Notes under the pieces: model-generated
The model's input: only the letters and a program-made list of their open reading frames with translations
Told to the model about the DNA's origin: nothing
Databases searched by the model: none
Origin: a virus
Reading direction: 5' to 3' (one strand)
Virus record (IMG/VR): IMGVR_UViG_3300029101_000001
DNA: 64,000 bases
Translations under genes and position numbers: made by a program
Shown here: piece after piece, positions 355 through 60,419 of the stretch
How positions within the stretch are numbered: the stretch's first letter is position 1
Layout of the letters: the number at the start of each line of letters is the position of its first letter

Positions 355-708
355 TCATATTTTAGCAAAATCTTCTTTGACTTTAGCTTTTATCTATTTT
401 AATATGTTAAGATATTCTTTATATTCGTTAATAACTTCAGAGTCAGAAATAAGATTTTCTGAATAACTATTATATGAATTGATTAAATCAAATTCTTCAT
501 CAACCGTAAGGAATCTTCTAACTATAGCTTTTACACAATCTTTATAATTAGGCTATCCGTTTATTAATACCTATATAAAACTATAGTAAGTTTTTTCTTT
601 TACGGTATTATCTAAATCAGATACTTTAACACTAATTTCTTTTATATCATAGTTATAGTAATAAGTACCGTTCCCAAGTTTTTGGATTGTCTAAGGATAA
701 ACGTCCAT
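355..708 (-). CDS. hypothetical acidic protein, 117 codons with 4 in-frame TAG codons; overlaps the RT 3' end by 56 nt
   Basis: Codon-by-codon minus-strand read, ATG at 706-708, TGA at 355-357. TAGs at 691, 571, 553 and 394. Frame differs from the RT frame. Confidence 0.4.
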
Positions 709-1927
709 TTGTATTCTATTCGGCTCTAACATAAGGTGTTATTTTAAAATTTATAGGAAATTTGTATCTAAGCAAAGAATAGTGTAATCTCCTATTCTTA
801 CTTTTAAAATAGTAGGGTTTATTGTTATACATGAAATGCACTCGAAAATGATTGTCATAATCAACAACCTCTACAATGTGAATATATTTATTATAAAACT
901 TAGATATGTTAACTTCTTTTCCATTCCAGTTAGAGAATTTCAATCCAGTTAACTCCTCTACCTTTCTCAGCAAGTTCTTAGAGTTGCAAAATTTCATCCA
1001 TCCAAAATAAGACCTCATTCTTCTATTCAATTCATCTTTATCAATCTTATTCTATTTATATAGATTTATAAGCCTAAACATCCTCATTTTTATAGATTTT
1101 CTCAGTAGAACATGAGTATGATAGAATTTATAGCCTACGAAATCAATACCTCTGCTTTCTACAGGGAATATTTGATAATTAGGCTTCAACTCTAGGTTAA
1201 GAACCTGTTTCAAATATAGTTTTATAGATACTAATACATTTCTCAAATAATTCTTGTCATTACCAAGAATCACAATATCGTCAGCATATCGAAAGTAGTA
1301 CTTACATTTTAACTCCTCTTTTACCCAGTGGTCAAAATATGTCAGATATAAATTTGCAAAGAATTGTGATAGATAATTTCCAATAGGAACTCCCTTCGCT
1401 GAATAAATTATTTCTTTCAACAGTTTTAATAGTTTTTTATCCTTTATCTTTCTCTATAACATTTCGTATAAAATGTCGTGAGTTATAGAAGGATAGAATT
1501 TTTTTATATCCATTTTCAAGCAATACTTTGTTTCTTCTGGATGTTTCTATAACACCTTAAACAAATCATACTCTACTTTATGAATACCTCTATTTCGTAT
1601 AGAGGAATATGTTTGGTCTATAAATATACTAGTCCAAATAGGCTCCATAATATTCATTATAGCATGGTGAGTTATTCTATCTGGATAGTATGGAAGTCTA
1701 AAGATTAATCTTTCTTTAGGTTCGTATATTATAAAGGTACTATATTCAGAGGTTTGATAAATCAAATCCCTTAACTTATCGGATAATTCCTTATTTTCTT
1801 TTAATCTATTCTTATCATGCTGCTTGATTCCACATCTAATAGACTTATTTCTTCTAGCTTTATCGTCAGCTAGTTCGATGTTATCTTCAGCGTATACTTT
1901 CTCGTGCAAATATCCTACACGTTTCAA
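653..1927 (-). CDS. DGR reverse transcriptase; gene contains at least 3 in-frame TAG codons read as sense
   Basis: Track ORFs 1547-1927, 1052-1420 and 716-1030 are all in one frame (coordinate mod 3 = 2). Each ends at CTA on plus strand (TAG on minus strand) and the frame continues to TAA at 653-655. Motifs RLIFRLPYYPDRITHHAIMNIMEP (RT fingers), GVPIGNYLSQFFANLYL (DGR-type IGxxxSQ signature), YADD catalytic motif. Cognate TR lies about 140 nt upstream. Confidence 0.8.
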
Positions 1928-2070
1928 TTTTTTATATATTTCATCGGAAGCGTTCGAGAATTAACCTACTAACACCCTTCATTCAACACTACGTTATCTT
2001 TTGCCTAGAGGCAAGGATATTACTTAGCAAACTAAAAAAAAATAATAAAATGTTTCTAAATATATAATAA

Positions 2071-2163
2071 CTCGACATTGGAATTGGCATTGCTGACGTC
2101 ATTGTTAGAATTGAAATAGCTGAGACCTGCATTGCTGCCATTATTCGCGTTGCTGCCTACTAG
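2071..2163 (-). repeat. DGR template repeat (TR), non-coding, adenine-rich at the variable positions
   Basis: Minus-strand sequence ctagtaggcagcaacgcgaataatggcagcaatgcaggtctcagctatttcaattctaacaatgacgtcagcaatgccaattccaatgtcgag. About 72% identical to VR1 and VR2. All mismatches sit at TR adenines, apart from one edge position in VR1. Confidence 0.85.
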
Positions 2164-2215
2164 CAGTACTTTTTTTGCCAATCAACGGTTTTTAGAAGTA
2201 ATATCCTACGATTTA

Positions 2216-4063
2216 TCATCTAAATCGATTTTTATATTGTATATCTTAAGATACTCTATTCAGAGTCCTGAACCCGACACCGGAACCGGCAACGCCGACG
2301 CCACCGTTAGAAAAGAAACAGCCGAGACCCGCATCGCCGCCATAATCCGCGCAGCTGCCCACCCGCAGCGTGCGAAGCGCTGTGCTGCTTGCGTTGCAGT
2401 AATGGTAATCGCAAATATAAGTAGTAGCACTTCCTCCAACAGCGGATGGAATTATTTCAGCGGTTTCACCTAAGTCAAATGCCTTAATATAACCATCAGA
2501 TGCTACTTCGTATCCTGCAACGGTTTTCTCTCCAACTACGTCGGTAAATTCCGATACGTTAGTAGTTGTATAGACAGTGCTAATCTCATTAGCAGCTGCT
2601 CTCACTATAACTACTCCGTCCAGGTTAGTCCAAATGTCTCCAAACGGATTATCGAACCCTCTCCAGCGAGGTACTTTAAATGTATGAGTTGCTACTGTAT
2701 TTGTGCCATCTTGAGCTGTACATTCTGGAATAACTAAATCTTTTACTCCAGTGAAGTTACCAAATTCATTGCAGTAACCACAAGGCGTAAGTGGATATGT
2801 TGCATTATATCCTGACCAACTTGTAGCTGCGTTAGCCCAATCTGTAACTCCAGGTCCCAAACCCCCTTGATGATATCCATCCGCAGTTAACTCTGCATTA
2901 TATGCAGCCTAAGAATTAAAATTAGCATATTCAATGACATAATTCCAGTAGAATATCCATTTGTAATATTCATAGCATAGCAATTCTGAACCAGCATTTG
3001 TTGCATATGTTCTCATAGTAGCTCTAGAAATATTAGTTCTAGGCTTTCCTAAATCACTTCTGAATATATCCTTAGTTTCTAATTCTGTAGTTAGATAATC
3101 ATCGTAGTTAGCTCTATTTCCTCCACCTCTAAATGCAGTAGTAGTATTAACTACTGATACAGCTTTTGGAGTTGCGGAGACTGTGGTATCAACTGTACTT
3201 CTGTATGCATCTATTAATAGTTCAGGAATTTCTACCCATGAATCATCAATTTTGACAGTAGAAGTTCTAACCCATCTTTTGTTTCCATCGCTGCCAGATT
3301 TTCCATAAAATTTAGGAGTATTAACTCTTACTGTTCCATCAGTTCCATCTAAGACAGATGGAGTTTCGCCGTCTTCTTTATAAGACCAGTCATCTGGAAA
3401 CAGATAGTAATTTACTACATCATTGTTTGCTACACAACCTCTATACGCTGACTGAATAGGAAGAGATTTATGCAACAAAGGATTACCTATTCTAGTAAGT
3501 TCCGGAGATGCTACTGTAACATCCCATTCTACTCCATAGGAATATAAATCCATATTACTATTTAGCTCAGTAACCTACTTATCAAGCTTTTGTTGTGCCT
3601 TCTACAATTCTTCCCAAGCCTCATTTAGCGCTGTAAATTGCTCTTCTAGCTTAGAACTTGAATCTGCCCATTCAGCAGTACCATCTGCTGAGAAAACTAG
3701 CATCTATCCAGACGCTCCTCCAGATGGAATATGTTTATTTCCAGAAGTAGTTGGGTGTACATAATTATTAGCATTATTAGCTATAGTACTTAACTTTTCC
3801 TTCTCAGTTTCAGTATAATTGGCTTCAGAAAGTCCCTTTCCTAACTCCTTATCTACTTTGCCTTCAAGCTCACCCTTAGTAGCTAATTCACTAATATCCT
3901 AATGCTCAGTTAAATATCCACTATCATTCTGTAACTAAGAAATTTTAGTTGGAATTGCATTAGCCTTGGCATATGTCGTATCTATAACATTTCCAGCACC
4001 ATCGTAAGTAGCTTTTAAATCATATGTGGTTTCCCCAACCTTTATAGATTTGATTGCTGCCAT
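2216..4063 (-). CDS. DGR target protein 1, tail-fibre / receptor-binding-like, about 615 codons with several in-frame TAG codons; VR near C-terminus
   Basis: ATG at 4061-4063 sits directly after an in-frame TAA at 4073-4075. Continuous reading frame verified through TAGs at 3899, 3935, 3704, 3602, 3575, 2909 and 2246, ending at TGA 2216-2218. Track ORFs 2909-3553 and 2246-2860 are in the same frame. Confidence 0.7.
2273..2367 (-). repeat. DGR variable repeat VR1 (3' end of target gene 1)
   Basis: Hand alignment to TR: 26 differences at TR adenines (mostly A to G or T) and 1 non-A mismatch near the 5' edge. GC-rich island in AT-rich DNA. Confidence 0.85.
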
Positions 4064-7000
4064 ATCATTGTATTATTAAAGTTTCATCAACTACATCGTG
4101 ATCTATTCCCTCTATGGAAGCAGTTAGGTCCTCAACAGCCTTCTACAATTCTGCTTTAGTAGCATAGTTCTTGAGAACTTCCTAGTCTACTCCAGAGCCT
4201 CCTCCTATACTTCCTCCAACAACTTTTACTGGTTTGGCAGAACTCTTAAACTGTCCTTCAATATAAATTGTTCCCATATTGTTTAAAATATTAATTGTTC
4301 ATTTTCTCCATCTACCTCTACACTAGAACCTGGCTATAAAGCGTCTATCTTTTTCTACAATTCGGCTACGGCCTAGCTAATTAGTTCTTCTACCTCAGCT
4401 TTGGTGTAGTATCTCTCTATAAGATATTCGCTTCTAACATATCCAGTATCTTGTAAATCTTTTTCTCCATAGGTGCAATAATAAGTATCTTCTTCAGTCT
4501 TACTATTCTCAACTAGGTCATCATAATCAGCTTGTGGTAAGCATACAAGTTTTGGTACTTCTTCAGTAATAGCAACTTGCTTACCTCCAGCAAATAGCCT
4601 GTTATCTTCTGTGGTAAGTTTAACAGAACTCTCAATAACTTGCTCAGTTCCTGTTTCCTCAGAAGGTTCTCCAGTTGTTCCCTATTGTACTTCTTTTTCT
4701 CCAATTTTCTAAATAGTAATATCAGAAGTTTCTACTGATGTAGATTTCAAAAGCTCAGTGCTAAATTCTTTAGCAGCAGCAGCCTAATCATCCTGATATT
4801 TTTTCTAGGTAACAAATATGAAATCATCATCTCCGGTTTCAGGAGAGTCTCCCCTTAAACTTTCTTTTGTTACGTAATCTTCGGCTATCTAATCTGATAA
4901 ATCAGATAATGACTATTGAGTAGCATAAGTAGACTGAGCATTTTCCTTAGTAAGAAATTTGTCATCAACCTGCTAAATAGTATAATAAGCCTTAATATCT
5001 TCTGTAGTAACGTAGTTTCCAAGTTTTTGCAAACCTTGAACTATTTCATCAATCTACTTCTTGGAGTAATAATTTGTAGCAACCCAGGACTGATATTGAT
5101 TAGTAGTATGATAATTCTAATCCAAATATTCCTTAGTAATATAAACCTTTGCATCATTTGTGACGTCATATACATAGTAATATGTATCAGGCTCTACCGT
5201 CCCTTCCTCTACTAACTTTAGATACTCTTCTTCAGTTAATGTTACTAAGTTCGGAATATCAGATTCAGTAGCAATCTAATCTTCACCTATAAATAATCCT
5301 TCAGACCTAACGTCTACTACTAGCTAGCTCTCTCCCTCTACTACAGGAGATTTTATCTATCCAACAGTGATGCTTTCTAAGGAACCATCTCCATCTACCT
5401 TAAGAGTTTTATCTAACTCGTCTTGGATGGCCTACTAATCTTCCTCATATTCTTTCTTTGTAACGAAGACAAAATCATCTCCTTCCATTCCCTCTCCTCT
5501 AAGGCTTTCTTTAGTAACGAAAATATCGTCTGTTTCTTCCTTAGTATAATACTTAGTCAGGGATAGAGCTAAAGAATCATTAGAGACATAATTAGTAGTT
5601 AATTCTTCCAGTGTAGCATAATCTGATAGGCTGGCAATAGTGTTATCTAAGTCTGTTCTAATCTATACTACAGTAGTATTAAGGGCCTTCTGTTTTAATT
5701 GCTCTTCTATCTTTTTTCCCCATTCTGCGGATAGGTAAAACTAGTCATCGTCTAAGCTATCCTCATATATATAATAATATGTCTCAGCATGAAGATACGT
5801 TTTACTTTCATCTATGGGCCTAAAATCGTCTGTAGTATTCTCAGACCATTCTTTATATTCAGCCTCTGTACAGGTGATTATCTAGATAGATTCATAGGAT
5901 GCTTTCCATCCTTCCTTGTATTTAATCTTAGACTTATCAATCAGCATATAAATATTTCCGTTATCTATGTTAGCAACGGTCATACCTTGATAAGCATACT
6001 TCTCTGGAATAGAATAAAGTTCGTCTAAGTTATTAACGACTGTTCTATTATCGAGAGGCTTCGGAGTTTCTACGGTTAAAGCGACACCTAAGGTAGCATC
6101 ACCTGTATATTTAAATGCCATTATTGTGATAGAATAAAGTTAATTTGATGTGGCAATGCTGAGGAGTAAGTATCTTTCTTAGTCCATACCTTGTAAGTAA
6201 ATCCATTTATCTACTCGGTAGACGTTTCCCAACCACTTAGGTCTACATTTAAATATCCAAGTCCTCCATCTACGGTAAATGAATTTAACTATGTGTTACT
6301 TCCTGGCAATTTTATAATAGCCTTACCACTTAGTGAAAATGTGATAGTTCCAGACGATTGTCCAAAAGGAACTAGCGCCTATTTAATCACACTATCAGTA
6401 TTACCAGAATACCAAGGATATGTGGCTACTACCTAAGCGGTAGCGGAAATAGAACCAGCTTCTACTCTCTTATCTGTAACTTCTCCTTTATTGTTTATCA
6501 AATATTCTCCAGCGGCATAACTCACTGTACCAGAGTGAGTATAAGTACCAATAGAATTATATGTATCAGACTCTACAGGAGAACTGTTATAAGTAATAGT
6601 TTCTTGTCTGTCAGTTTCTTCTCCAGCATCATTCTTTATAAATGTAAGTGTAGGAGTTAATAAAGCAGTTCCTACTTCTACTATTTGAGAAGTAAAACTA
6701 TAATAAAGCTATGGGTATACTAAATCTCTAACTACTGTTGGAAATAGTAAAGTATCAATAATCTCATTAAAGGGCTTGCCCTTAAGTTTCTCTACTGTAG
6801 TCCCTTCAATTACTGTTGAAGTAGTATCATCTGGGAGTTCTGTCTAATAAGTAGCTATAGTTTCTAAGTTAGTTTGTATATTAGTAATACTTTCAGTATT
6901 AGCTTCTACTTTAGTATTTGTCTCTTGTTGTGCTTCCTAAGTTTTCTATACTTCTTTCTTTGTTTCTTCTAGAGCAGGTTCAAGATTCTTAACATAGATA

Positions 7001-10000
7001 CCTGGAAGGATAATAGAAGAGGTTTCCTCTCCAATCTCCTATTCTATTAAATGAATAGCATTATCTTCCTAAGTAGATAAAATCACCTCTAAAGAATTAT
7101 CTTCCTTTAGTTCTATAGTTTTGGAATTTTGGAGACTATTCTTAATCCAATTAAGAATGTTTTTATCAACATCTATATTCTCAATAGCATTATTCAACTC
7201 AACTATAGCTTCATTGATTTTTACTATTTCTTCAGATAGATTATTAATCCCTTTTCTATTAGTATCAATTTCTCGTTGTAAATCCTCCTTCAATACAGAT
7301 ATAGAAGTTCTAATATTGCTTATATCGACTTTCAGTTCTTCTATTGCTTCTGTATTAGATTCATATTCACTAATAAAGTATAGGGCATAGTCTAGGGCAT
7401 CCTTCACAGTATTAATACCTTCTGCAACGTCACTAGTATAGGTCCATTTTTGTTCTATATACTATACTAGGTCTTTTTGCAGTTCTATGGTTCCACTAAT
7501 GTTTCCCCACAATAGACTCTACTCATCAGCAATACCTAAGTTCTTTCTTACTTTAGCTTTTTCTAGTTCTGTCCTATATTCTCCTAAATAGTTATTTCTT
7601 AAGAGAGGTATAGGCTCACATTTTATAGGCTTACCCTTTTTACCACAAGGCACTATATCTGCATTACTTACCGAAGTGTAAATAGACTGTATCATTCTAG
7701 TTTAATAATTGCTATTTAATAAATTCGTGATTATCTAGTCTTACAGGTAGGTTAATAAAACAAATTAGATTAAGAATATCTTGATAATCTGGTTTATATC
7801 CCTTTTTGAGTTTTCTTAGAAAATCCTCATACCTTTTAATAGCCTTTCTCTTAAGAGCATCCACAACCTATACGTTTATGTCCATGGTGGTGATTATCAC
7901 AGAATCCTCCACAGGTACGGAACATCGCTAGTAATCTCTCAGCCTCCATGAATTGTTTAAAGCATATTAAATAATCTATAATGTTAAGAGTCATCCATAT
8001 GAAATCTCGAGCAAATATATCTGCTTCCTAATCTCTAGTTAGACACTTATTTAGTAAAGCATCAAAGAGTTTCTTACAATAATTAATGTAGCACTACTAC
8101 AAGTTTCCTGTAAAGAAAACATCTACCTTACATTTTTTTATAGTAGTTCCTTCTATATTTCGTTCAAGAACTTCTTTAACTGTACACTCTTCTAGCTTAC
8201 CTTCTACTTCTTTATATAATTTTTCTCCATCAGTAACATAGATAGTCTCATAGTATTCCTTGTATTCGTCCGATGAATTTTCATACCATTTCATATTAGG
8301 AATAATGATATGGTCTACTACGTAATAACCATCATCCTTGACCTTAAACATACACGAGTCCAAGTCTTCTGTATGGTCATTAAGTAGGACATCTATCAGA
8401 GTAGCATCGCTTATACTAACTTTGATGATAGTATTCAAGGTAGCACTCTCACTATACTTATAGGAGTCGTAAGAAGTTACTACCTCTACATCTTCATCAA
8501 TATACTAGCCATATTCTTTTGAGAAATCTTCTATCAGTATTTCCCCATTAATTTGGGTATGTATATCAATACTAAATTCCATATTGTAATAATTAAGACT
8601 CAATAGGCCACTAACCATATTGAGCAGGGGTAGAAAAAGGTTTCCATTTACCTGCTTGTCTTATTCGTCTAGACATGAAGACGGAAGTAAATGATAAACT
8701 AATATCTTGAGGATAATCTGTCCAGATATAAGAATATCCATCTGGGGTAGGAGGTAGTTTATCTAGTCCAGAAGAAGGCTGACCATTCCAATAGTAGTTA
8801 TAGTCATATGCCTTTAGAGAAGTAACTTCTGTAGTTTCTTTCCCTTCAGCATCTATATACAGCGGATTTCCGTCCTCATCTGTTTTCTATTTATATTCTA
8901 TAACTGGTGTTATTCCCTCGGTTCTAGTATATATAGTCTATATAATAGTAGAGACATCACTCGCTACTATTTCATAGATAGTAGTTCCCTATGATTCATC
9001 AGCTCCCTAAAAAGTAAATTTAGTTCTTTTCCATATATATGGATTCTCTTCTGTTGGAAGCTCAAAAGTATCAGACCACTACTTACTTGATAGTTTTATT
9101 TCAGATTCATCGGCAGTATTAGCAGGGAGATAATGTATTTTAATAATAATACTATTAACTGCCTCACTTGAACCAGATAAATCTGATACCTACTTAAATA
9201 ATTTTTTTAAGTCGTCTTCTACATTTGATTTAGAACCGGAAGCATTACTTATAATTACTGTCCCATCAGAGATAGGATAAATCTACTGCTAATCTTTGTT
9301 GTATACAATTGTTCCAGTTGCCATATTAATGTATTTGTCTTATTTTGTCATTATATGGATTTCCATCATGAAGCTAAGCCAACTCTATTTCAGTTCTTTT
9401 TTCTTCAATATCCATTTGTCTATCTTTATAAGTAGAATCAGACTGAGCTTTAAGCCAGTTAACTTTATATTCTAACTGCATCTTCTACTATTCTAATCCT
9501 AGTCTCTATTCATCTAAGCTTTCAATCTTTTGCTGAGCTTTCTATAATTCTTGCTATAACTACTGAGCCTATTGAGAAGTTTCTTCTAATTTTTCTTGTA
9601 GTTGCTGAAGCTGATTATTTTCCTCTTTGCGAACTTGAACAGCTTTCTTAACCTTATATTTAAGGTCTGTCAGACTCTTAGATGTAAGAGCCTCAAAAAT
9701 AATATCTGGGTCCATCTGTTGACTTTTTACGAACTCTGGAATGATTGCTTTTATAGTCTATAGATCTTCCATCACTTCTGAACTAGCAGTAATATGAATA
9801 TCGTAGTCAGTAACAGTAAAATACTCAGGAAGTGCGGTGAATATCTGTTGATATTTATCCCCAAGTATAATAGTTCCAGTTAATCCTTTCTTATAAGTAA
9901 CTTTAGCCTAATTAAGACTATCTAGTAGTATCTCGCAGGTTATTAAATCCATCTGCTAAAAATAGTGCTTAGTTACTATATACGAGTTAGCTACTCCCTA

Positions 10001-11449
10001 CTTAATATTAGTAACTGCATCTCTAGTTTCTATACCGTTAAGTCGTTCCCTAAATACTCCAGTTATTGATGATGTAGTTTGTTCTACTGATTGAATAGCT
10101 AATTCAATAGCCTATACAGCCTATGCTTTTAAGGTATCATCAAATCCGTTATATATCTAGTTTGGAGCTTGCTGTCCATCATTCCTACCTTCTTGGCTTG
10201 AGTCTATCCACATGATACCACCTTTTTTATAGGCTAACCATTTTTGTACTCGTTCTGGCCATTTAACTCCTAAGTTGGTAGGCAACAGAGACATATCCAT
10301 AATAACTCCGGCAGTACCACTATTAGCTATTAGATTATCTCTATAATAGTTTAATAAGTCGTATCTATCCTACAGATGTGCACATTTTAATATAAGAGAA
10401 TAAGGCTACTAAGAGCGATTTAAGAAATATACTCCATTTACCGATAAAGAACAGAAGTTGGGATTATCTTTAGATCTCATAACAGTCTTGTCTAATCCTC
10501 TAAGAATATATATCTCTTCTCCTATTCTAATAGTATTGTATCTCTACATCACAAAATCATCATCTGTTTCAATCCATTCAACATCATAGACTGGGATTAA
10601 CTAGAACCTATGAGCACTATATTCATTGTCTGGATAGCCGGGAATGGTTTCATGATTCTAATCTTCATTTACTACTGTACAAGTATCTCCATATACTCTT
10701 CTATAAACAGCAGCTGAATCATCAGCTCGCCATTCATCTTTTAGTCTTCTTAAATCTTCTCTAGATATTTCTTTGCCATATTTAGCTAAAATCTAACTCT
10801 TACTCATCCACTTTCTTACTACAACTCTATATGAGTTCCTTACATATGGAGATTCTGGATTTCTATCAACAAATGTATTAAGTGGGTTTAATACCTCTAT
10901 TTCAATATTAGTTCCAGAAGCCGATGATTTCACTCTAAAGAATGTATAACCAGTAATTAATAAGTCTGTTAGTAACTAACGTAACTTAGTAATTAAATCG
11001 GTTTCTCTGGATTGCATAATATAATGTAATATATTCTAAGCTGCAATTTCATATTGAGAAATAAAGGATTGGTCAATATCCTATATAATTTTATCTAACT
11101 AAGTCTTTACAGCTTTATCAGTAATATCCTTGCCATCAATAAACTTAAGAATTGAATTACTTAAATGGTCTTTCAAAAACTTTACTATTCCCTTGGTTAT
11201 TTCTAGCTATTTTTCTCTTGTTATATTACTGATAGTATCTGAATCTTTGCAAGAAATTTTCGGAAGTATAGGAGTTCCTAAATATTCTCCAACTAGGGCA
11301 TCTACGTGTTTCTTTAATAAAGGCGTAAACTCTACCGAAGTGGGGCTACCTATTCCGAAGTTTTCTTCCAGATAACGGAACTATTCAGGATCTCTTTTAC
11401 CATTATAATAATTATAAGCTTTCTGTAACTCATACTTATCATATACAAG

Positions 11450-13900
11450 TTCCGCAATAGCCTCGTTTGTCTTGTCTATCAATTCCTTCTCTTTCATAAC
11501 ATAAATTATGTTGTTCTGGAGGAAGTTTAGTAGCGTTATAATACTTAACTCTTTGTAACTTCCTACTTCTTAATTCTTCCTTAATAAATGGCAGAAATTC
11601 TTCGTCTGGTAAATCTGCTATTATTACTAATGGCATTTCTGACCTATCAAAGTTAAAAGAGACTTTATACCCAACTGGGTCTAAACTCTCAATATCTAGT
11701 CCGCCTATATACTCCATTTTGTACAAGTCCCTCATATATTCTAGGATCACTTGTTTCAACTCTGTATGGGTCATCATATTCGTTTCTTTGCATATTAAGT
11801 TCAGGAGTTTTCTTAGTTGGAATAACTCCAAATCTTTTAATTCCTCTCTCGTCGTAATAGTAACCAAAATCTTGGAACTATTCAACTTCTTTCTCCACAA
11901 GTACGGGCTGTCTTCCTGATAGCTCTTGGTCTGCTAACTCAGTCATACCTACAGCGGCTACAATATCATACTTACCCTTATTTTCATCATTATATGCAGT
12001 GAACTATTCTAGCATTTCTTCGAACCATATAGTATGGCAATAGTCTTCTATAAAGGCGGCTGTTAAATCAGTATGCTATTCGATTATAGTTTTTGTAGCA
12101 GGAGTTCCATACTATTTAGTAGTTCCATTTCTAACGTCAGTTAGAGTAGCTCTTGGGCGCTTCATAAAATAGTTAAGGCATCCTTTTTCTCTAGCCCAAG
12201 TAACCATACCCATACGAGTAGCTTCTATATTTATTTTACAATTATAATAGCGAGCTAAACACATAGCTATTTTATAGGCTTCTCTGATGTCTCCAGGTCT
12301 ATCCTTGTACATAGCAACATACTGAGGGTCATTCATACCAAATGTACGTTTCTTAATCGTTATGCAGAAATCAGACGGGTCTCTGGTTTCCTTAGAAGTC
12401 TAATTCGCTCCAATATCAATACCGTCTATACCTGCTACGTATAAGTCTCGCATCTCTTTATAAACTGGAACTTCAAAATCCTAGCCATTATCTTCTGCCT
12501 CCTATCTAAGCTTTTCCATTTGTTCTTTATATAAGTCAGACCATATTGGATGCTCTAGAATTTTTACTTTACCATTGCTGTTAGGAATCCATTTAAAACC
12601 ATCAATGTTATCCTAAGTATGTTTATTATTTTTGTAAAAATAATCAATATAACCACATTCGGGTCTTGGACCAATTTGTTTAAGTCTTATATTAGCTATC
12701 TATTCGGCAACTAAAATTTTATTAAACTTATTAACACCTTCTAGATTAAATGCTTCTTCTGCATTCCAACAACGTTCAGCACATTTCTTTAGGTAGTCTT
12801 CTGGTACAGCTAATAGATTATCTCGCTCCTCCTATAAGAATTTCTTATATTCCACAGTATTACATACTCCTCTGTGGTCCATAAATTCTGGATTCAAAGA
12901 TTGTATAAAGTATGGAATAAAGAATCCACTCTCTATAGTAGTCCCATCCTAAGTCCAATTATGTCTAAATGGAAGAATCTTATATGCTCTTGGATTATAG
13001 TAAATCTTTTTTAAGCCCTCTAGAGGAGCACCCATATCACCGCCAGTACCTCCAAACAACATTGTTCCACGAGGCATACCTTGAACTTCACAAAGTTCTT
13101 GACCTTGTACTACAGCGGTATCAAGTCCAGGCCAGGAACCAGCTTCATCATATATTAATAAATCTACACGGTCTCCACGAATGTTAGATGGTTTAGCTCC
13201 GTTAATTGCTACAACCTCAGATTTAAATCCTACGTCTTCAAACTAACCATTTATTTTGATTTGTTTACCTGATTTCTTTCTCAAATCCTGGTCAATAAGT
13301 CGTAATTTAAAAAATCCTCCTCCAGTACAGGTATTTAAGAATGTAAGAGCATTATCAAACTTACTAAAGGTACCCTTAAGGAAGGTATCATTAAAGCAAG
13401 TAATCATAACCCTACTTCTTCTAATAACAGAGTACATACGAGCAGAAAGAGAGGCGTTTATTTCAGAGAATCCAATAGAACGAGCTTTCATTAAAGCTGC
13501 GTGCTTGTGTAGCACTCTAGCCATCTATAGATAATGAAAGAACATATAATGTGATGCAAAGAATATTGGGAAGTCATTATCAGTACCCTCACCAGAGGCT
13601 TTCTACTAGTCAATAGTAGGTAACTAATAGAAATTTAAGAAGAAGTAATTATCTCCAGTAATGGTGTACCCATTAACTGTCATTCCATACTTACATCTTC
13701 TATATTGCTCTTTCCAAAATTCGTTGTACCGCTTACTATCTCTAAGGTAGGGACAGTATTGACCAGTTCGTTTATATACTTCCCTAGTCTCGGTAAACCA
13801 ATCTGGATTAAAGTCCAATCCATGAGTTTCGTCAATAGGTCTGTATCCAGTTATTTCATAAGATAAGGTAGGGTCAAATACTTCTATTTTATCTCCTATT
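11450..13900 (-). CDS. putative terminase large subunit (approximate ends); in-frame TAG codons
   Basis: Track ORFs 13624-13818, 13243-13524 and 12112-12336 share one frame, and translation continues through TAGs. Contains hhhhDE-type Walker-B-like LLIYDEAGSW and later YVAGIDGIDIGAN (nuclease-like). Read by eye, the Walker A motif was not located. Confidence 0.35.
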
Positions 13901-15441
13901 TTAACATCCCAATAGTCAGAATTTCTGACCCTTTCCTCTCTTATTTTCTATACTAGTTCTCTAGCTTCTTTAGCATCCTCTTTCTATTCTTTTTCTCTTA
14001 CCTAATCTACAATATTCTATATTTCTTCAGGTAATATCTTTTTTCTTGGCATAATTAAAAGTCTCCTGGGTCAAAACCATCCACAGCTCCAGCTCTAACA
14101 GTAGATTGTTCAGTAAGTTCTTTCTTAACCTAGTCTTCTAGTGTTATGAGTTCTTCATGAACTTTGTGAAGGGTAGCCATTTCCTTCATTACTTTTTCAG
14201 CCTGGAATACTGGCTTGCCGTTATTATCACGCTCATTTAAATCTACAATAGTTTCGAAATAATCAATAAACTAGTCTGCAGCTCTTTTAGCTGCTTCTAG
14301 TAATTTTATTGACTTGTTTGAATCTTGTAACGCTCTGTATTTCCTACAAGCTTCTCTAAATATAGGGTCATTAAATTCTGACTCTGTCAATCCAGAATCA
14401 CTAATAGCTTCGTCATGTCGTTCATGTTCCGAATACTAACTGTACGGACTTTTCCAGTCTATAGCTAAATAAATGTAAGATAGTTCTCTAGTAGCTCTAT
14501 CCTTTTCTGCAGATTTATCCCTCTAGATTAAAGCCTTAAATTCCTTAACTAGCAATATCTCTGGTTCATTTATTTCTAGCTATTTAGTTAAAGTGTTATA
14601 GTTAAATACATTCATAATCATTAATCATTATCATACACATTAGATAATCTTATTATTTCTTTTTCATTTTGGAACCGCACTTATTGACTTTCATTTTTGA
14701 GCCACAAGCGTCTTTCTTAGCATATTGTTTTCTGTCAGGAACCCATTTTCCTCCCTGGAAATTACCCTTATGTCCTTTATTGGCCATAGTTTCCTAATCA
14801 TTGTATTTATTGATTGATATAGAATCTCTTGAGGCTTCGTCTCTAGCAGATTTCATATCTTTCTTATACTAAGCTCTTCCAGCCTTAAATTTATCAACTT
14901 CATTAGCTTTCTTAGTAACTTTAGTTCCTTTTTGTGCTTTCTGGCAAGCTTTACAGATTCTACCGCCTTGCTTAAAATATACAAGCTCTTCTCCTTCTGG
15001 ACATACTCCTTTTAGCTTCTTATAATACTCAAGCTTAGCTCCAAGCCTAGCCATTACTCCTCCTTGCATTTTCTGCATAAATTCCTGATACTTAGCTTTA
15101 ATGCCGTCTTCACCTAATTGTTCAGCATAAGCTTGTAAATCCTATTCAGATTGTACTTGTATTCCCTACGCAGCGGCATCTTGTATTAGATATGCCATAA
15201 ATGCTTTTTGTAATTCTTCCTAGTTAGCCATTACTCTTCTACTTTAATTAAATCCTTAGTATTAAACACTGCTTCCTACATAAGTCCGGAATCAGTAAAC
15301 CATCTACATCTTAATCCTCGTAATCCTTGGTTATCTTTAAATAAAGCTGCTTCTCTTCTTAGAACAAGCATAACTGGAGAATGCATTACTTTACACTACC
15401 GTAAAGTAACACAATCCCCAGGCTTAAAATAAACTTTTTCA

Positions 15442-19905: not shown

Positions 19906-19922
19906 AACTATTAATTTTGGCG

Positions 19923-19994
19923 TTGCCCTACTAGGATTCGAACCCAGACTAAATGATTTAGAGTCATCTGTGCTGACCATTACACCATAGGGCA
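19923..19994 (-). tRNA. amber suppressor tRNA, anticodon CUA, probably charged with Gln
   Basis: Minus-strand cloverleaf: ugcccua ug gugu aauggucagcac a gauga cuCUAaa ucauu uagu cuggg uucgaau ccuag uagggca a. Acceptor, D-arm, variable loop and T-arm nearly identical to the phage tRNA-Gln(UUG) at 34204. Confidence 0.85.
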
Positions 19995-54772: not shown

Positions 54773-55789
54773 ATGAAGAAAATTTTTAGTATTATTTGTT
54801 TGTGTTTAATGTGCGTGTTTGCTAGCGCACAAGTTGTTGAAACTGGAAGTTTGAAAGATAACTGGTATGTTTCTGGTAATGTAGGTACTACAATTTGGGA
54901 CAACTCAAGAAGTTGGGCTGAACCTCGTGATGTATTAGTAAATATTGCGGTGGGTAAAGAAATTACTCCTATCTTTGGACTAGAGTTAGATATGATGGCA
55001 GGTATGAATCAAGGCAGTGAAACGTTCTTCGATTCCCATAACCTTACAGCTAATGTAACTACTAATCTAACTAATCTTATTTGTGGATACGAAGGCTCTA
55101 GACGTTTATTTGAGCCTGTATTACTGATAGGTGCTGGTTGGTATCATACTTATGGTGATGTTTATAATAATGTATCTGCAAGAGGTGCAATTAGATGCAA
55201 CTTTAATATTACTGATAGTTGGGCACTAAATGTTACTCCAGAGTATATGCTACTTCCAAAGACTACTCCTCTAAATCATGAAGTAAATGTTTATATAGGA
55301 GCCACTTACCGGTTTAAGTCTAATAAAGGAAACTTTCCTATGATGAAACTATATAGTGACGCTGAAGTAGAAAGTCTTAATGCTGCTATTAACGAGTTGA
55401 GGGTTAAGAATAGCGAATTGGAATCTCGTAAACCAGTAGAAATAATTAAGACTGATACTATAGTAGTTACTAAGGTAGAACTTCTTACACCTAAAATTCA
55501 GTTTTTACAGAACTCTTCTGAAATCTCTACAACTTCTAATGTTGCAGTATCGGAGTTAGCAGCTTATATTTCAAATAGTGGTAAGTCATATATGATTGAA
55601 GGATATGCTTCTGAAGAAGGTCCAGTAGATTTTAATGACAACTTAGCTGTAGCTAGAGCAGAATCTATGAAGAAGGCCCTTATCAGTTATGGCGCTCCAG
55701 AGGATAAGCTTATAGTTAAAGGCTGCGGAAGCACTACTGAGTTTGGAGATAGAGAATTTAACAGAATCGTAATCGTAACAGAACAATGA
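54773..55789 (+). CDS. OmpA-family outer-membrane protein (signal peptide, putative beta-barrel, C-terminal OmpA-like domain)
   Basis: Signal CLMCVFASAQ. C-terminal MIEGYASEEGPVDFNDNLAVARAESMKKALISYG OmpA-like peptidoglycan-binding motif. Confidence 0.55.
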   Translation: MKKIFSIICLCLMCVFASAQVVETGSLKDNWYVSGNVGTTIWDNSRSWAEPRDVLVNIAVGKEITPIFGLELDMMAGMNQGSETFFDSHNLTANVTTNLTNLICGYEGSRRLFEPVLLIGAGWYHTYGDVYNNVSARGAIRCNFNITDSWALNVTPEYMLLPKTTPLNHEVNVYIGATYRFKSNKGNFPMMKLYSDAEVESLNAAINELRVKNSELESRKPVEIIKTDTIVVTKVELLTPKIQFLQNSSEISTTSNVAVSELAAYISNSGKSYMIEGYASEEGPVDFNDNLAVARAESMKKALISYGAPEDKLIVKGCGSTTEFGDREFNRIVIVTEQ

Positions 55790-56369: not shown

Positions 56370-56865
56370 ACATCTAATTAGGATTATTAAGCATAAATAC
56401 TGGGTAGCACGCTATTGTTTCCAGTTAGGTCTTTATTGGCAGGGAATAGTACATGACTGGTCTAAGTTTAGCTATACTGAATTTAGTAGGTCAATAAAGT
56501 ATTGGGACGATACTATTAGTCCTCTAGCTAATGAGAAAAACATACACGGATATTCTGAAACCTTCCTACATCATCGAGGAAGAAATCCACATCACTATGA
56601 ATATTGGGTTCATAGTTTAGATGAAGGAGGAGTTCCAGCGAAAATGCCAAGAAAATATGCTTTGGAATTAGTCTGTGATTATCTGGCTGCTGGGAGAACC
56701 TATAATAAAGATTTTACCTATGGGAGTGAGTACAACTGGTGGATTAAATTTCTAAGTTCACCTAGAGCTATACATCCCGAAACCAAGGACTTCGTAACTA
56801 AATGCTTTAGGCATTTGAGTGCCGGAGGTAATATTAAATATTTATTGAAAATTGACTATGAGTAA
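56353..56865 (+). CDS. hypothetical protein
   Basis: Track ORF. Confidence 0.5.
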   Translation: MTRIFKHLIRIIKHKYWVARYCFQLGLYWQGIVHDWSKFSYTEFSRSIKYWDDTISPLANEKNIHGYSETFLHHRGRNPHHYEYWVHSLDEGGVPAKMPRKYALELVCDYLAAGRTYNKDFTYGSEYNWWIKFLSSPRAIHPETKDFVTKCFRHLSAGGNIKYLLKIDYE

Positions 56866-57676
56866 GATAATAGGGCAAGACAAGTTAATTAAGGAAGTTA
56901 ATAGAATATTTCAGGTATTTGTAAATAGTAATTGCAAGATAAGACCGCACTTTATTCTTACAGGTGAGAGCGGGTCTGGTAAGAGCTTTACTATTAAACA
57001 GTTATGTGATATGAATGAACTTAGCTTTCTAGAAGTTAATGCAGCTCAAATAACTAAAGAGGGTATTTCTGGAAATAGTTTAAGCAAAATTCTATCTCCA
57101 CTTGTTAACTATAGTCACACACCTATTGTAGTCTTCGTAGACGAGTTTGATAAACTTTTCATCAACGGAAACACTAATAGCCAACTGGCTAATGAATCTA
57201 CTGCCAGTGTACAGAACGAGTTTCTCAAACTTTTAGAGTCTGATACTACTAGTGTTTTTGGCGATTATGGGAAGTACATATCAGTCCCTATTGATAATGT
57301 ACTATTTGTGTTTGCTGGAGCATTCAATAATGAGCCTCACATTACATTAGATAGACTAAGAGACTTTGGAGTTAAAACAGAGTTTCTTGGAAGAGTAGGA
57401 TTAATCTACAATACTAAACCTCTCACTCTAGAGGATTTGTATTCTATCTTGGAGTGTTCAGACTTGTTGCAGAATTATCTTGACTTATTCTTTAATGTAA
57501 ATAGAGAACAAGTCATTAGTGATTTGAAAGGGTATCTCGAAAGTTCTTTTCGCAATAATACTCTTGGAGCAAGAACAATTAATACTCTTATTCACCAATA
57601 CTTTATCAAAGGTGGAAAACTCGAAACTGAAGAAGTAAAAGAAATAACTTTTAACAAAAAATTAGAATGGAAATAA
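56852..57676 (+). CDS. AAA-type ATPase
   Basis: Walker A GESGSGKS and Walker B VVFVDEFDK. Confidence 0.55.
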   Translation: MTMSKIIGQDKLIKEVNRIFQVFVNSNCKIRPHFILTGESGSGKSFTIKQLCDMNELSFLEVNAAQITKEGISGNSLSKILSPLVNYSHTPIVVFVDEFDKLFINGNTNSQLANESTASVQNEFLKLLESDTTSVFGDYGKYISVPIDNVLFVFAGAFNNEPHITLDRLRDFGVKTEFLGRVGLIYNTKPLTLEDLYSILECSDLLQNYLDLFFNVNREQVISDLKGYLESSFRNNTLGARTINTLIHQYFIKGGKLETEEVKEITFNKKLEWK

Positions 57677-59217
57677 TTAATGCTACAGATGGTTACAAGT
57701 TGGGCCATCACAGAATGTACCCCGAAGGTACTGAACAAGTTTATAGTAACTGGACTCCTAGAAGTAATAAATACTTCCCAGAAGCAACCGAAGGTTCAGT
57801 AGTATTTGGTATTCAATACCTAATCAAAGAATATCTCATTAAACAGTTTGAGAAAAACTTCTTTAATCTACCAAAGAAGGAAGCTGTGGAGATGTTCTAT
57901 CGTAGAGTAAACAACTTTGTTGGTATTGAATCCGTTGGGTACAGACATATTGAAGCTTTATATGACCTTGGGTATCTACCAATTCGCATAAAGGCTCTTC
58001 CTGAAGGTTCTGTGTGCCCTATTCGGGTTCCCATGATGACCATTACAAATACTCTACCCGAGTTCTTTTGGTTAACTAACTACTTAGAGACTATTATCAG
58101 CTGTACCTTGTGGATGCCATGCACATCTGCTACTAGAGCTAGGCTTTATAAGAAAGAGCTACATCGTCATGCTTGCAAGACTGGTTTTCCAACAGATGTA
58201 AATCTTGGTTTTTGTTGTCATGATTTCTCAATGCGAGGTATGGCGGGAATGGAAGCCGCAATTATATCTGGTATGGCGCATATGACTTCTTTTGTGGGAA
58301 GTGAAACTATTCCAGCTATTGCTGCTTTGGAAGAATATTATGGAGCTAATTCAGACGAGGAATTGATTGCTGCTACAGTTCCAGCAACAGAACACTCTGT
58401 AATGTGTGCTGGAGGGGAGGAAGATGAGCTGGGCACTTTCAAACGTCTAATTAATGATTTGTATCCTTCTGGGTTTGTTTCTATTGTATCTGATACTTGG
58501 GATTTCTGGAATGTAATTGAAAATTTCTTGCCCAAGCTGAAGAAAGACATTATGGCTCGTGATGGTAGAGTAGTAATCCGTCCTGATAGTGGAGACCCAG
58601 TAGATATAATCTGCGGGTTGAGAACTAATCCTCACTTCAATACCAGAATGAAAGAAGGTAAGTATTATTGCTGCTATGCTCCGTTTAACGACGATGCAGA
58701 GTATGTTGAAGTGTCCGAAGGTCAATATTATGGGGCATATTATATGCTTGGTAAAATCTTCGGATGGAATACTACTTCAAAGGATTACCGTTATCCTAGC
58801 ACTAAGGTTGGTCTGCTTTATGGAGATTCTATTACTCTGGAACGTCAAAAGCAAATCTACTTGAGATTAGAAAACGCTCATATGGCGGCTTGTAATCTCG
58901 TTCTGGGAGTAGGTTCATATTCCTATCAGTATGCAAGTAGAGATAGTCTTGGGTTTGCTATTAAGGCTACTGCTTGCGTAGTAAATGGCGAATTGAAAGA
59001 AATCTTCAAACATCCTAAAACTGATGATGGTACTAAGAACTCTTTGAAAGGTTTGATTGCTGTCTATAAATGTCTGGATGGGAAGTATACTGCTACCGAC
59101 CAGGTCTCAATCGAGGAGGAAAAAGAGGGATGCTTAGAGACTGTCTTTGAAGATGGTATCTTGAAGAAAGAATATTCTCTTGAAGAAATCAGACAAAGAA
59201 TTGACCATGGACTTTAA
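57667..59217 (+). CDS. nicotinamide phosphoribosyltransferase family protein (NadV/NAMPT-like or the NARP1 Namat-type homologue)
   Basis: TDGYKLGHHRMYPEGT, ALPEGSVCPIRVP, FFWLTNYLETI, VSDTWDFWN, VIRPDSGDPVD align by eye with NAMPT landmarks. Confidence 0.7.
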   Translation: MEIINATDGYKLGHHRMYPEGTEQVYSNWTPRSNKYFPEATEGSVVFGIQYLIKEYLIKQFEKNFFNLPKKEAVEMFYRRVNNFVGIESVGYRHIEALYDLGYLPIRIKALPEGSVCPIRVPMMTITNTLPEFFWLTNYLETIISCTLWMPCTSATRARLYKKELHRHACKTGFPTDVNLGFCCHDFSMRGMAGMEAAIISGMAHMTSFVGSETIPAIAALEEYYGANSDEELIAATVPATEHSVMCAGGEEDELGTFKRLINDLYPSGFVSIVSDTWDFWNVIENFLPKLKKDIMARDGRVVIRPDSGDPVDIICGLRTNPHFNTRMKEGKYYCCYAPFNDDAEYVEVSEGQYYGAYYMLGKIFGWNTTSKDYRYPSTKVGLLYGDSITLERQKQIYLRLENAHMAACNLVLGVGSYSYQYASRDSLGFAIKATACVVNGELKEIFKHPKTDDGTKNSLKGLIAVYKCLDGKYTATDQVSIEEEKEGCLETVFEDGILKKEYSLEEIRQRIDHGL

Positions 59218-59644
59218 TCATCCTTTTGGGAAAGAAGCTTGCAAGAAACGACTATTAGAAGAGTATCATAAATACGGAAAGCTAATAGTCGCTTTCGATT
59301 TTGATAATACTATTTTCGATTACCATAATACTGGCGGAGATTATAGTTGCGTTATAGAACTACTTAAAGAATGCTCACTTCTAGGTTTTGAAATGATTTT
59401 ATTCACCACTGATGAAGATGATTATAAAATTATGGCAAAGCAGACAATTTGTATGCGATTAGGAATAGCAAATATTACTTCTAATACTTTATCTGCTCCA
59501 AACATTAGTAGTTCTATATTCTCTAAATCTAAGAAACCTTATTACAATATCCTCCTAGATGATAGGGCAGGTCTGGAAGAAAGTTATGAAATCTTAAAAT
59601 ATGTAGTAGATGAAATTAAACTTAATCAACAAGGAAATCAGTGA
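59180..59644 (+). CDS. HAD-superfamily hydrolase-like protein
   Basis: IVAFDFDNTIFDYH matches HAD motif I (DxDxT). Real start may be the internal ATG at 59207. Confidence 0.45.
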   Translation: MKKSDKELTMDFNHPFGKEACKKRLLEEYHKYGKLIVAFDFDNTIFDYHNTGGDYSCVIELLKECSLLGFEMILFTTDEDDYKIMAKQTICMRLGIANITSNTLSAPNISSSIFSKSKKPYYNILLDDRAGLEESYEILKYVVDEIKLNQQGNQ

Positions 59645-60419
59645 AATTAAGTACGATGTTACTAGATTTCCTGATGGAGAGCCTCAGTTTTTCCTTACTG
59701 AGGAATTAAACAGAAAGGAATCTATTGATGTCATTTGTAGAATATCTAATACTGAGGATTTATTCCTCTTAGTGCAAGTAGGAGATATTTTAGATAGACA
59801 AGAAGTAGAATGGGATTTACACATTACTTATTTAATGTCTATGCGTATGGATAGAGTAATGAGTTTTAATCGTCCATTCTCCTTGAAAGTAGTATGTAAT
59901 ATGTTAAATAGCTTAGGCTATAGAAACATATATGTTCTTGAGGCACATTCTAGTAGAACTTTTCATCTTCTTGGTGACAGATGTTTACCTTGGGAATTTG
60001 GACACCACTCTTGGATTCCAGCCCAAAGTAATATCGTGTTCCCAGACCATGGGGCGAAGGACAGATATGGAAGTAACTATTCTCACTATGGTTATTTAGT
60101 CTTCAAAAAGGAAAGAAATCTAGAGACTGGAAGAATTGAGTCCTTTGAAATAGAGGAGTCTAAGAATTGCTACTATTCTACATTTGTGTTCATTGATGAC
60201 TTGTGTGATGCCGGAGGAACTTTCCTAGGAGAGCTTAAGGTTCTCAAAGAGAGATATCCAAATAGCAAGTTTATCATAATCGTATGTCACGCAGTTAATG
60301 ATAAAGGTCTGATTAATATGTGTAATAATTTTGACCAGGTTATTGTATCTAATTCTCATAGGGATATTAATTATCGTCCCAGCAACGAGAACTTAACTGT
60401 AATAGACGTTTGTAAATAA
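59610..60419 (+). CDS. ribose-phosphate pyrophosphokinase (Prs)-like phosphoribosyltransferase-fold protein (candidate ADPR-pyrophosphokinase Adps)
   Basis: RFPDGEPQ (compare Prs RFSDGE), IVFPDHGA, FVFIDDLCDAGGTF (PRPP-binding loop). Confidence 0.6.
   Translation: MKLNLINKEISEIKYDVTRFPDGEPQFFLTEELNRKESIDVICRISNTEDLFLLVQVGDILDRQEVEWDLHITYLMSMRMDRVMSFNRPFSLKVVCNMLNSLGYRNIYVLEAHSSRTFHLLGDRCLPWEFGHHSWIPAQSNIVFPDHGAKDRYGSNYSHYGYLVFKKERNLETGRIESFEIEESKNCYYSTFVFIDDLCDAGGTFLGELKVLKERYPNSKFIIIVCHAVNDKGLINMCNNFDQVIVSNSHRDINYRPSNENLTVIDVCK

Follow-up and report, generated by a model that had tools for sequence, protein, structure and literature searches.

Gene layout of the locus

Four consecutive genes are found on the + strand of a stretch of 64,000 nucleotides (hereafter the window) from the IMG/VR virus record IMGVR_UViG_3300029101_000001, all of them at the positions listed in an earlier, sequence-only reading of the same DNA (the original prediction). 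They encode an AAA+ ATPase (56852-57676; PF00004, 1e-12; phrog_5534, 8e-116), a 516-aa protein of the NAMPT family (57667-59217), a 145-aa capless phosphatase of the HAD superfamily, similar to BT0820 (59207-59644), and a 269-aa PRPS-like, or Prs-like, protein (59610-60419). Family-match E-values of the size reported here and below are far beyond chance. The last three genes very probably form an operon for NAD+ reconstitution pathway 1 (NARP1). In such an operon the NAMPT-like protein would be Namat, a nicotinamide ADP-ribose transferase, the Prs-like protein would be Adps, an ADP-ribose pyrophosphokinase, and the HAD phosphatase would be a candidate accessory enzyme.

The open reading frame (ORF) of the HAD protein was first listed as 59180-59644, opening at TTG 59180; its real start is probably ATG 59207, where the metagenome homologues begin. 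By the same token, the AAA ATPase is likely to start at ATG 56858. Each gene runs into the next by 8-35 nt (10 nt for AAA/Namat, 11 nt for Namat/HAD and 35 nt for HAD/Adps), and these overlaps suggest co-translation, as a single translationally coupled unit. A sigma-70 promoter scan returned sites no more often than expected by chance, Bacteroidota promoters being outside its coverage, and a terminator scan, with 7 sites against 3.0 expected, did not delimit the operon.

Identity to the human-faecal phage record MT836666 (25.6 kb) is 99.8% over this region, and IMG/VR contigs of 185-192 kb match it too, their HAD proteins sharing 99-100% identity with that of the window. The carrier would be a human-gut phage, uncultured, whose genome measures about 185-190 kb, of which the window covers 64 kb. 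Among annotated phages, the three genes have their nearest relatives in crAss-like Steigviridae and in Prevotella Lak megaphages; the Steigviridae concerned (cr126_1, cr111_1 and the Bacteroides phages DAC15 and DAC17) have all three genes in matching order.

The NAMPT-like protein

The product of 57667-59217 matches PF04095 (3e-32), PF18127 (1e-9) and phrog_448 (1e-182). Taken with the phrog labels 'nicotinamide phosphoribosyl transferase' and 'ribose-phosphate pyrophosphokinase' and with NF006629, these generic annotations speak for a classical salvage route, in which the Prs-like protein makes phosphoribosyl pyrophosphate (PRPP), the NAMPT-like protein, as NadV, makes nicotinamide mononucleotide (NMN), and host NadR or NadD completes NAD+. 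We regard this route as very improbable; identical annotations were experimentally proven wrong for the homologous operon of phage Bas63, and several features of both proteins, described below, stand against it.

The best solved relative of the protein is 9w5x/9w5w (E = 2.4e-145), human NAMPT reaching only 3e-66. A tblastn search with the 9w5x chain sequence identified it as the Namat of SPbetaL1 (100% identity). The window protein is 49-51% identical to the validated Namat enzymes of SPbetaL1 and FADO, and only 28-32% identical to the Nampt enzymes of the NARP2 type (KVP40-like, 44RR2, BL02 and CcrSwift). When extended to 2046 phage records, identities show a bimodal distribution: a mode at 35-50% corresponds to phages with an Adps-Namat pair (Bacillus, Staphylococcus Kayvirus, ICP1, Felixounavirus, Pakpunavirus-like), a mode at 24-30% to Nampt of the T4/KVP40 type. 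In a neighbour-joining tree of 15 sequences, the window protein and its crAss-like relatives fall inside the Namat clade, separated with 100% bootstrap from the four NARP2-type Nampt.

Namat enzymes have been defined as keeping the Nampt catalytic core while adding a two-element adenine 'selectivity clamp', composed of a helix (SCH) motif and an extended beta1-beta2 loop in which Arg, Lys or Tyr serves for stacking; mutations support both motifs as determinants of specificity towards ADP-ribose pyrophosphate (ADPR-PP) (PMC12774641). Both elements are recognizable in the window protein. The helix reads GSYSYQYASRD (residues 416-426); its positions 3, 5 and 7 are Tyr, and position 9 is Ser instead of Thr. 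In its place, GGGLLQxxxRD or GGGLATGDLDRD is found in the four Nampt of the NARP2 type. The clamp loop (SCL), PRSNKYFPE, matches the PRSNKYFP of the validated FADO enzyme, and is several residues longer than the loop of Nampt sequences. The core described for SPbetaL1 Namat comprises Asp13, Tyr15, Phe189, Arg192, Asp215, the catalytic His, Arg306 and Asp308 (PMC12774641); D8, Y10, F187, R190, the His of the ATEHS motif, R305 and D307 are their conserved counterparts in the window, Asp215 being the only position changed.

Clade and clamp together support the assignment of the NAMPT-like protein as Namat, predicted to prefer ADPR-PP over PRPP. They also argue against classical salvage and against a pathway of the NARP2 type, in which the NAMPT-like protein would make NMN, a phage Nmnat encoded elsewhere would adenylate it, and the Prs-like protein would only boost the supply of PRPP. 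The latter is extremely improbable: to the low identity with the four Nampt, the 100% bootstrap split and the missing GGGLLQ motif is added that no frame of the 64-kb window contains an Nmnat homologue, an HxGH motif or a Nudix box.

The Namat homologues of Bacteroidota phages share two sequence variants, GSETIP in place of G(S/T)D(T/S) and, in the clamp, SRDS in place of TRDT. These are lineage-specific changes at positions predicted to contact the ligand.

The Prs-like protein

The product of 59610-60419 matches phrog_619, 'ribose-phosphate pyrophosphokinase' (2e-51), and solved Prs structures with E-values up to 2.5e-7; it carries the RFPDGE, PDHGA and FIDDLCDAGGTF landmarks quoted in the original prediction. 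It is 26-28% identical to the validated Adps of SPbetaL1 and FADO and 19-22% identical to Prs. Phage Adps proteins are monophyletic with 99-100% bootstrap, also after addition of archaeal class III and Legionella Prs. Within this clade, the group formed by the window and crAss-like proteins is sister (87-92%) to a Firmicutes-phage group that holds SPbetaL1 and FADO, and the ICP1 and Felixounavirus proteins branch outside both. The Adps of ICP1 has been validated biochemically (PMC13586617), and the validated phage Bas63 belongs to Felixounavirus, the genus of the phage in the tree; validated enzymes therefore lie on either side of the window protein in the tree, with SPbetaL1 and FADO on one side and ICP1 and Felixounavirus on the other.

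The residues that determine activity in ICP1 Adps are Lys185 on a beta-hairpin and the acceptors Arg87, His121, Asp161, Asp212, Asp213 and Asp216, while the donor site is made of the PP loop Cys215-Ser220, Phe221 and Phe223, with Phe18 and Phe92 contacting the adenine (PMC13586617). The catalytic Lys185 corresponds to K167 of the window protein, and the six acceptors to R79, H113, D146, D196, D197 and D200, all conserved. The same residues are conserved in Prs, so that this match indicates competence and not specificity. The donor site is conserved in part. The PP loop is remodelled to C199-D200-A201-G202-G203-T204, with Ala201 replacing the Thr of the Prs loop (DTGGT) that grips the phosphate of ribose-5-phosphate, which argues against synthesis of PRPP. 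The lid residue Phe221 is F205 in the window; this position is Phe in 11/11 phage proteins and Leu or Ile in 7/7 Prs. Phe20 of the window protein corresponds to the adenine contact Phe18.

Loss of the C-terminal alpha11-12 regulatory/filament module is considered a defining signature of the Adps family (PMC13586617). The window protein lacks this module, since its 269 aa stop before the LAEAIRRISNEESISAMF segment found in all the class I Prs aligned; about 15 N-terminal residues of Prs are also missing from it. The missing regulatory C-terminus and the score obtained with the Prs hidden Markov model TIGR01251 (NCBIfam) both tell against the Prs of a classical salvage route: the window protein scores 58.3 bits, under the cut-off of 113, and E. 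coli Prs 422.7 bits. The validated Adps of SPbetaL1, FADO and ICP1 also remain below the cut-off (96-106 bits), and one member of the Adps clade, the Felixounavirus homologue, passes it with 139.6 bits.

Genes of the Adps clade adjoin a Namat gene in 97% of cases (Osterman et al. 2024, bioRxiv 10.1101/2024.02.11.579819); in the window, the Namat gene is one gene away, the limit for Adps membership being ten genes. Clade, residues and C-terminal loss support the assignment of the Prs-like protein as Adps, which would use ADP-ribose (ADPR) together with ATP to give ADPR-PP and AMP.

The HAD phosphatase and its linkage to NARP1

The small protein encoded between the two genes has the Rossmann-like HAD core fold and all four HAD motifs, DFDNT, T67, K110 and DD118-119 (145-aa numbering). 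DxDxT, K110 and DD118-119 are invariant among 20-25 homologues, and T67 is nearly so. The protein matches phrog_1238 (5e-15), and the profile of its family matches PDB 2obb, the structure of BT0820 (8e-4). The family has no Pfam model, and Pfam scans at E <= 1 return weak generic HAD matches only. With 20-22% identity to BT0820 and 20 bits against a cut-off of 165 for the BT0820 family (NF046079), the protein lies outside the BT0820 equivalog; for BT0820 itself, the closest structure, no published function was found.

Homologues of the HAD gene were collected from IMG/VR, and 73 out of 78 loci encode Adps and/or Namat within 6 kb. After reduction to 27 non-redundant loci (<85% HAD identity), the HAD gene adjoins Adps and/or Namat in 24. 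The order found in the window, Namat-HAD-Adps, accounts for 16 of these, followed by Adps-HAD-Namat (4 loci), Adps-Namat-HAD (2 loci), HAD-Adps-Namat (1 locus) and a Lak-type HAD-Adps pair with Namat elsewhere (1 locus). The linkage thus spans five gene orders, and at least four unrelated phage lineages. Among GenBank phages, the HAD family is present in 82 records, including 54 from Bacillus, 15 from Lak and 9 from crAss-like or Bacteroides phages; the Bacillus records are Bastillevirinae, such as Belinda, where gp66 immediately follows Namat. In the Lak-type loci (L159, L160 and Lak phage records such as MK250015) the HAD gene directly precedes Adps and Namat lies about 100 kb away (in MK250015, HAD at 105060 and Namat at 209888), which indicates that the HAD gene is more tightly tied to Adps than to Namat. 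No further recurrent partner emerged among the 131 ORFs flanking non-redundant HAD-NARP1 loci, the top Pfam family having only 4 matches.

The HAD gene is missing from the validated two-gene operons of SPbetaL1 and FADO. Since these function without it, the HAD enzyme is to be seen as accessory, not needed for the core reaction. It might even be an unrelated hitch-hiking neighbour, for example a phosphatase acting on nucleotide pools or nucleic acid ends; the generic HAD fold without a Pfam model, the three non-redundant loci out of 27 with no NARP1 gene within 6 kb and the activity of the two-gene operons would fit this view. It is nevertheless rather improbable, because the linkage persists through all the arrangements and lineages listed above, no other neighbour family is shared to a comparable extent, and in the window the HAD gene overlaps both Namat and Adps.

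Two other candidates for membership of the HAD family were rejected: a 130-aa ORF that follows Namat in Staphylococcus phages is not homologous, and a Pseudomonas phage 'phosphatase' turned out to be a Macro domain protein.

Two of the loci collected contain additional genes. In IMGVR_UViG_2872351278_000001 (locus L167, 5941-9960) the HAD gene is accompanied by genes for an isochorismatase/PncA-like protein (6.6e-22), Adps, a Namat-like protein and the NAD synthase NadE (8.8e-54), which together make up an extended NAD module. In the Namat-like protein, Ala replaces the Asp215 that binds the amide of nicotinamide, and a 9-residue insertion is found in the clamp helix. This locus may encode a deamido route, in which nicotinic acid and ADPR-PP would give nicotinic acid adenine dinucleotide, converted by NadE to NAD+. 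In a second locus (L138) a 342-aa ORF at 4970-5998, within a 348-aa stop-to-stop frame (4955-5998), lies between Namat and HAD; it joins a P-loop kinase domain (AAA_33/dNK-like) to a 5'-nucleotidase domain of the NT5C type, and may be another accessory related to NAD or nucleosides.

Evaluation of the NARP1 reading

A NARP1-type pair, Adps plus Namat, had been put forward as a candidate in the original prediction, and is now supported by clade placement and by features specific for the two enzymes. The phylogenetic placement proposed there as a check puts both proteins inside the phage Adps and Namat clades with 99-100% bootstrap, apart from Prs and Nampt. Instead of clustering with canonical Prs and NadV and lacking the specific substitutions, they carry the clamp, the C-terminal loss and, in a donor site conserved in part, a remodelled PP loop and the Phe lid. 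Of the four genes grouped there in one module, the NAMPT-like and the Prs-like genes hold their place, and so, as a candidate accessory, does the HAD gene, linked to one or both in 24/27 loci; the AAA ATPase gene, carried by only 9/78 loci, does not. No NMNAT, Nudix box, GxFxPxHxGH/HxGH or Macro motif and no homologue of the Nmnat-like protein of CcrSwift were found in any frame of the 64-kb window, which disfavours both NARP2 and the Macro-type variant of NARP1 (NARP1-AP, see below).

A number of observations weigh against the proposed reading. In the window Namat, the nicotinamide-binding Asp215 is replaced by Glu213, a substitution common to all the Bacteroidota-phage relatives (cr126_1, cr111_1, DAC15 and 12 IMG/VR loci). 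Namat enzymes remain able in vitro to use PRPP for NMN synthesis, about half as fast as human Nampt (PMC12774641); some classical salvage is thus possible, and this activity speaks in favour of that route. The window Adps shares only 26-28% identity with the validated enzymes and is farther from Prs than those are. The ICP1 adenine contact Phe92 and the donor-site residue Phe223 are changed to Met84 and Gly207, at positions that are variable also in the validated SPbetaL1 and FADO proteins. The trees were built by neighbour joining from 15-18 sequences, with few and mostly gammaproteobacterial Prs as outgroups: a search of genome contigs with E. coli Prs gave only Gammaproteobacteria at >=80% identity, and the outgroup was widened with two partial sequences taken from PDB alignments, those of S. 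solfataricus (4twb) and Legionella. The window represents 64 kb of a genome of ~185 kb, leaving room outside it for the Nmnat of a NARP2-type pathway. As to the HAD gene, NARP1 genes are missing from the surrounding 6 kb in 3/27 loci, of which one is at a contig end; the set of 78 loci consists of the closest relatives retrieved by two peptide patterns, and hence a biased sample; and the substrate proposed below for the enzyme we purely infer.

Proposed mechanism

We infer the enzymatic activities and the anti-defence role of the operon from gene content, clades, diagnostic residues and linkage. A host NADase defence of the SIR2, TIR, DSR or SEFIR type would cleave NAD+ to ADP-ribose and nicotinamide. 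Adps (59610-60419) would use ATP to pyrophosphorylate the 1'' hydroxyl of ADP-ribose, producing ADPR-PP and AMP, and Namat (57667-59217) would couple nicotinamide with ADPR-PP to give NAD+ and PPi, its adenine clamp selecting ADPR-PP over PRPP. Namat, HAD and Adps would probably be made together from their overlapping genes, the HAD phosphatase being an accessory third component beside the other two. Defences overcome by NARP1 include Thoeris, DSR1, DSR2, SIR2-HerA and SEFIR (Osterman et al. 2024, bioRxiv 10.1101/2024.02.11.579819). The list in the original prediction agrees with this for Thoeris, DSR and SEFIR; CBASS, which it also named, is not among the defences reported in that paper.

For the HAD enzyme we tentatively suggest, by analogy, that it takes a phosphomonoester off a phosphorylated derivative of ADP-ribose, supplying ADPR to Adps. 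The substrate could be ADPR-1''-phosphate, from RES-type NAD+ phosphorylases, or 2'-phospho-ADPR, from NADP+. It would then act as the functional counterpart of Adpp, the Macro-domain phosphatase of NARP1-AP.

A role within the NARP1 operon other than feeding ADPR is also conceivable, if somewhat unlikely. The enzyme could act as an AMP 5'-nucleotidase relieving product inhibition of Adps, as a pyrophosphatase pulling the Namat reaction, in the clean-up of what ADPR-cyclic-phosphate (ADPR-cP) breaks down to, or as an NADP+ or NADPH phosphatase. AMP does inhibit the Adps of ICP1, with about 35% of the activity left at 500 uM (PMC13586617), and ADPR-cP is a by-product of Adps according to the methods of the 2024 paper (bioRxiv 10.1101/2024.02.11.579819). 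The Lak-type loci, with HAD right before Adps and Namat elsewhere, hint at a link with the Adps step. Against such roles, AMP and PPi are usually handled by host enzymes, adenylate kinase and inorganic pyrophosphatase ordinarily clearing them. These options are indistinguishable in silico from a phosphatase acting on ADPR-1''-phosphate or 2'-phospho-ADPR.

If the suggested supply of ADPR by the HAD enzyme is correct, NARP1 could counter defences whose product is a phosphorylated ADP-ribose, for instance RES-type NAD+ phosphorylases or the cleavage of NADP+, and such defences should be frequent in gut Bacteroidales and in Bacillus. The processing of modified ADP-ribose by a HAD enzyme would add, alongside the Macro-domain Adpp, a further layer to the NAD+ arms race, and would point to host defences with uncharacterised NAD+ cleavage products. 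More generally, genes labelled 'nicotinamide phosphoribosyltransferase', 'phosphoheptose isomerase' and 'ribose-phosphate pyrophosphokinase' by annotation pipelines would become an anti-defence, NAD+-rebuilding operon of abundant human-gut phages, implying that NAD+-depleting immunity truly selects on the phages of gut Bacteroidales.

Neighbouring genes and other features of the window

The AAA ATPase gene (56852-57676) was rejected as a member of the module, since no more than 9 of the 78 related loci carry it; about 47 of the 78 come from the lineage of the window itself. In loci without it, including nearly identical strains, a DUF5662 gene directly abuts Namat, and the ATPase gene is found neither in crAss-like loci nor in any other NARP1 lineage covered. 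It is treated here as a strain-variable insertion between DUF5662 and Namat. DUF5662 was also rejected as a module member: it is limited to the lineage of the window (39 loci) and is absent from the other HAD-NARP1 lineages.

The ATPase (phrog_5534) has a ClpX/HslU-like core, and shows a presence/absence polymorphism among nearly identical strains. In three proteins (P0005, P0006 and P0007) from metagenome contigs of 46-186 kb, its first ~95-104 residues are fused in-frame to the HAD protein, and the entire Namat gene is gone. The junctions fall in two strings that resemble each other, VFVDEFD (Walker B) and VAFDFDN (HAD motif I); the fusions are either natural deletion variants that have lost Namat or assembly artefacts.

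A 338-aa ORF at 54773-55789 has a signal-peptide-like N-terminus, a C-terminal region that looks OmpA-like by eye, and weak matches to phage 'membrane protein' families; it is a possible moron, just upstream of the operon.

At 653-14070 on the - strand, translation with genetic code 11 gives almost no long ORFs, and seven ORFs of 269-793 aa appear when TAG is taken as a sense codon. A tRNA of the amber-suppressor type (anticodon CTA) is encoded at 19922-19994 (-). The 653-14070 region looks like a TAG-recoded block of late genes, of a kind known from crAss-like and Lak phages; the block that holds the NARP1 operon uses the standard code. A further 27 tRNA genes are scattered over 22279-51117 (+), an unusually large number for 30 kb.

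Comparison with known systems

Phage-encoded restoration of NAD+ is also the role of NARP3, composed of PnuC and a NadR-like protein (PMC13464706), which is otherwise unrelated to the operon described here; no Nmnat, PnuC or NadR-like gene was found in the 64-kb window. NARP2 (Nampt/NadV plus Nmnat, KVP40 type) restores NAD+ by means of a NAMPT-family enzyme, as proposed here, but its Nampt lacks the adenine clamp, and the window protein falls outside the NARP2 Nampt clade.

The operons of Bas63, SPbetaL1, FADO and ICP1 provide the closest parallel. In all of these NARP1 systems a PRPS-like and a NAMPT-like gene are in one operon, as in the window, whose proteins share with them clade membership, the Namat clamp, the Lys and acceptor residues of Adps, the Phe lid and the C-terminal truncation. 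Proteins of cr126_1, DAC15, DAC17 and Lak phages have already been tabulated as Adps and 'Adps-associated' Namat (Osterman et al. 2024 supplement, bioRxiv 10.1101/2024.02.11.579819). The window differs from the validated operons in gene order (Namat, HAD, Adps instead of Adps-Namat with nothing between), in the Glu found for Asp215 and the clamp ending in SRD instead of TRD, and in the low identity of its Adps (only 26-28%). The NARP1 kind itself is already known; the new element is the conserved HAD gene tied to it, an enzyme that is unmentioned in the NARP1 literature that could be searched.

A three-gene variant, NARP1-AP, has been described in Vibrio phage Gary, where Adps is followed by the Macro-domain phosphatase Adpp and by Namat; Adpp converts ADPR-1''-phosphate, the product of RES-domain NAD+ phosphorylases, to ADPR (bioRxiv 10.64898/2026.01.28.702374). 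DAC15, cr126 and Belinda are unlisted in the supplements of this preprint, devoted to aRES (bioRxiv 10.64898/2026.01.28.702374). A family scan of the ORFs around the module gave no Macro match, the HAD phosphatase sitting in the equivalent place; a search with a single query, a Pseudomonas Adpp-like protein, gave no match in the window or in any of the 78 HAD loci, and Macro is not among the 25 families listed in the census of the 131 flanking ORFs, a list that leaves aside 26 single-member families. Macro Poa1p-like proteins occur mostly in phages of Proteobacteria and HAD-type loci in phages of Bacteroidota and Bacillus, so that their host ranges are largely complementary. A doubtful view is that the HAD enzyme is a non-homologous replacement of the Macro Adpp, i.e. 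that a second, independently evolved NARP1 bearing a phosphatase exists in Bacteroidota phages, namely crAss-like, Lak and the 185-kb lineage of the window, and in the Bastillevirinae of Bacillus. The two systems are alike in having three genes, with a small phosphatase gene between the NARP1 genes, and in the proposed conversion of phosphorylated ADPR to ADPR; they differ in the phosphatase itself, which has a BT0820-like HAD fold in the window and a Macro/Poa1p fold in Adpp, and is therefore not homologous.

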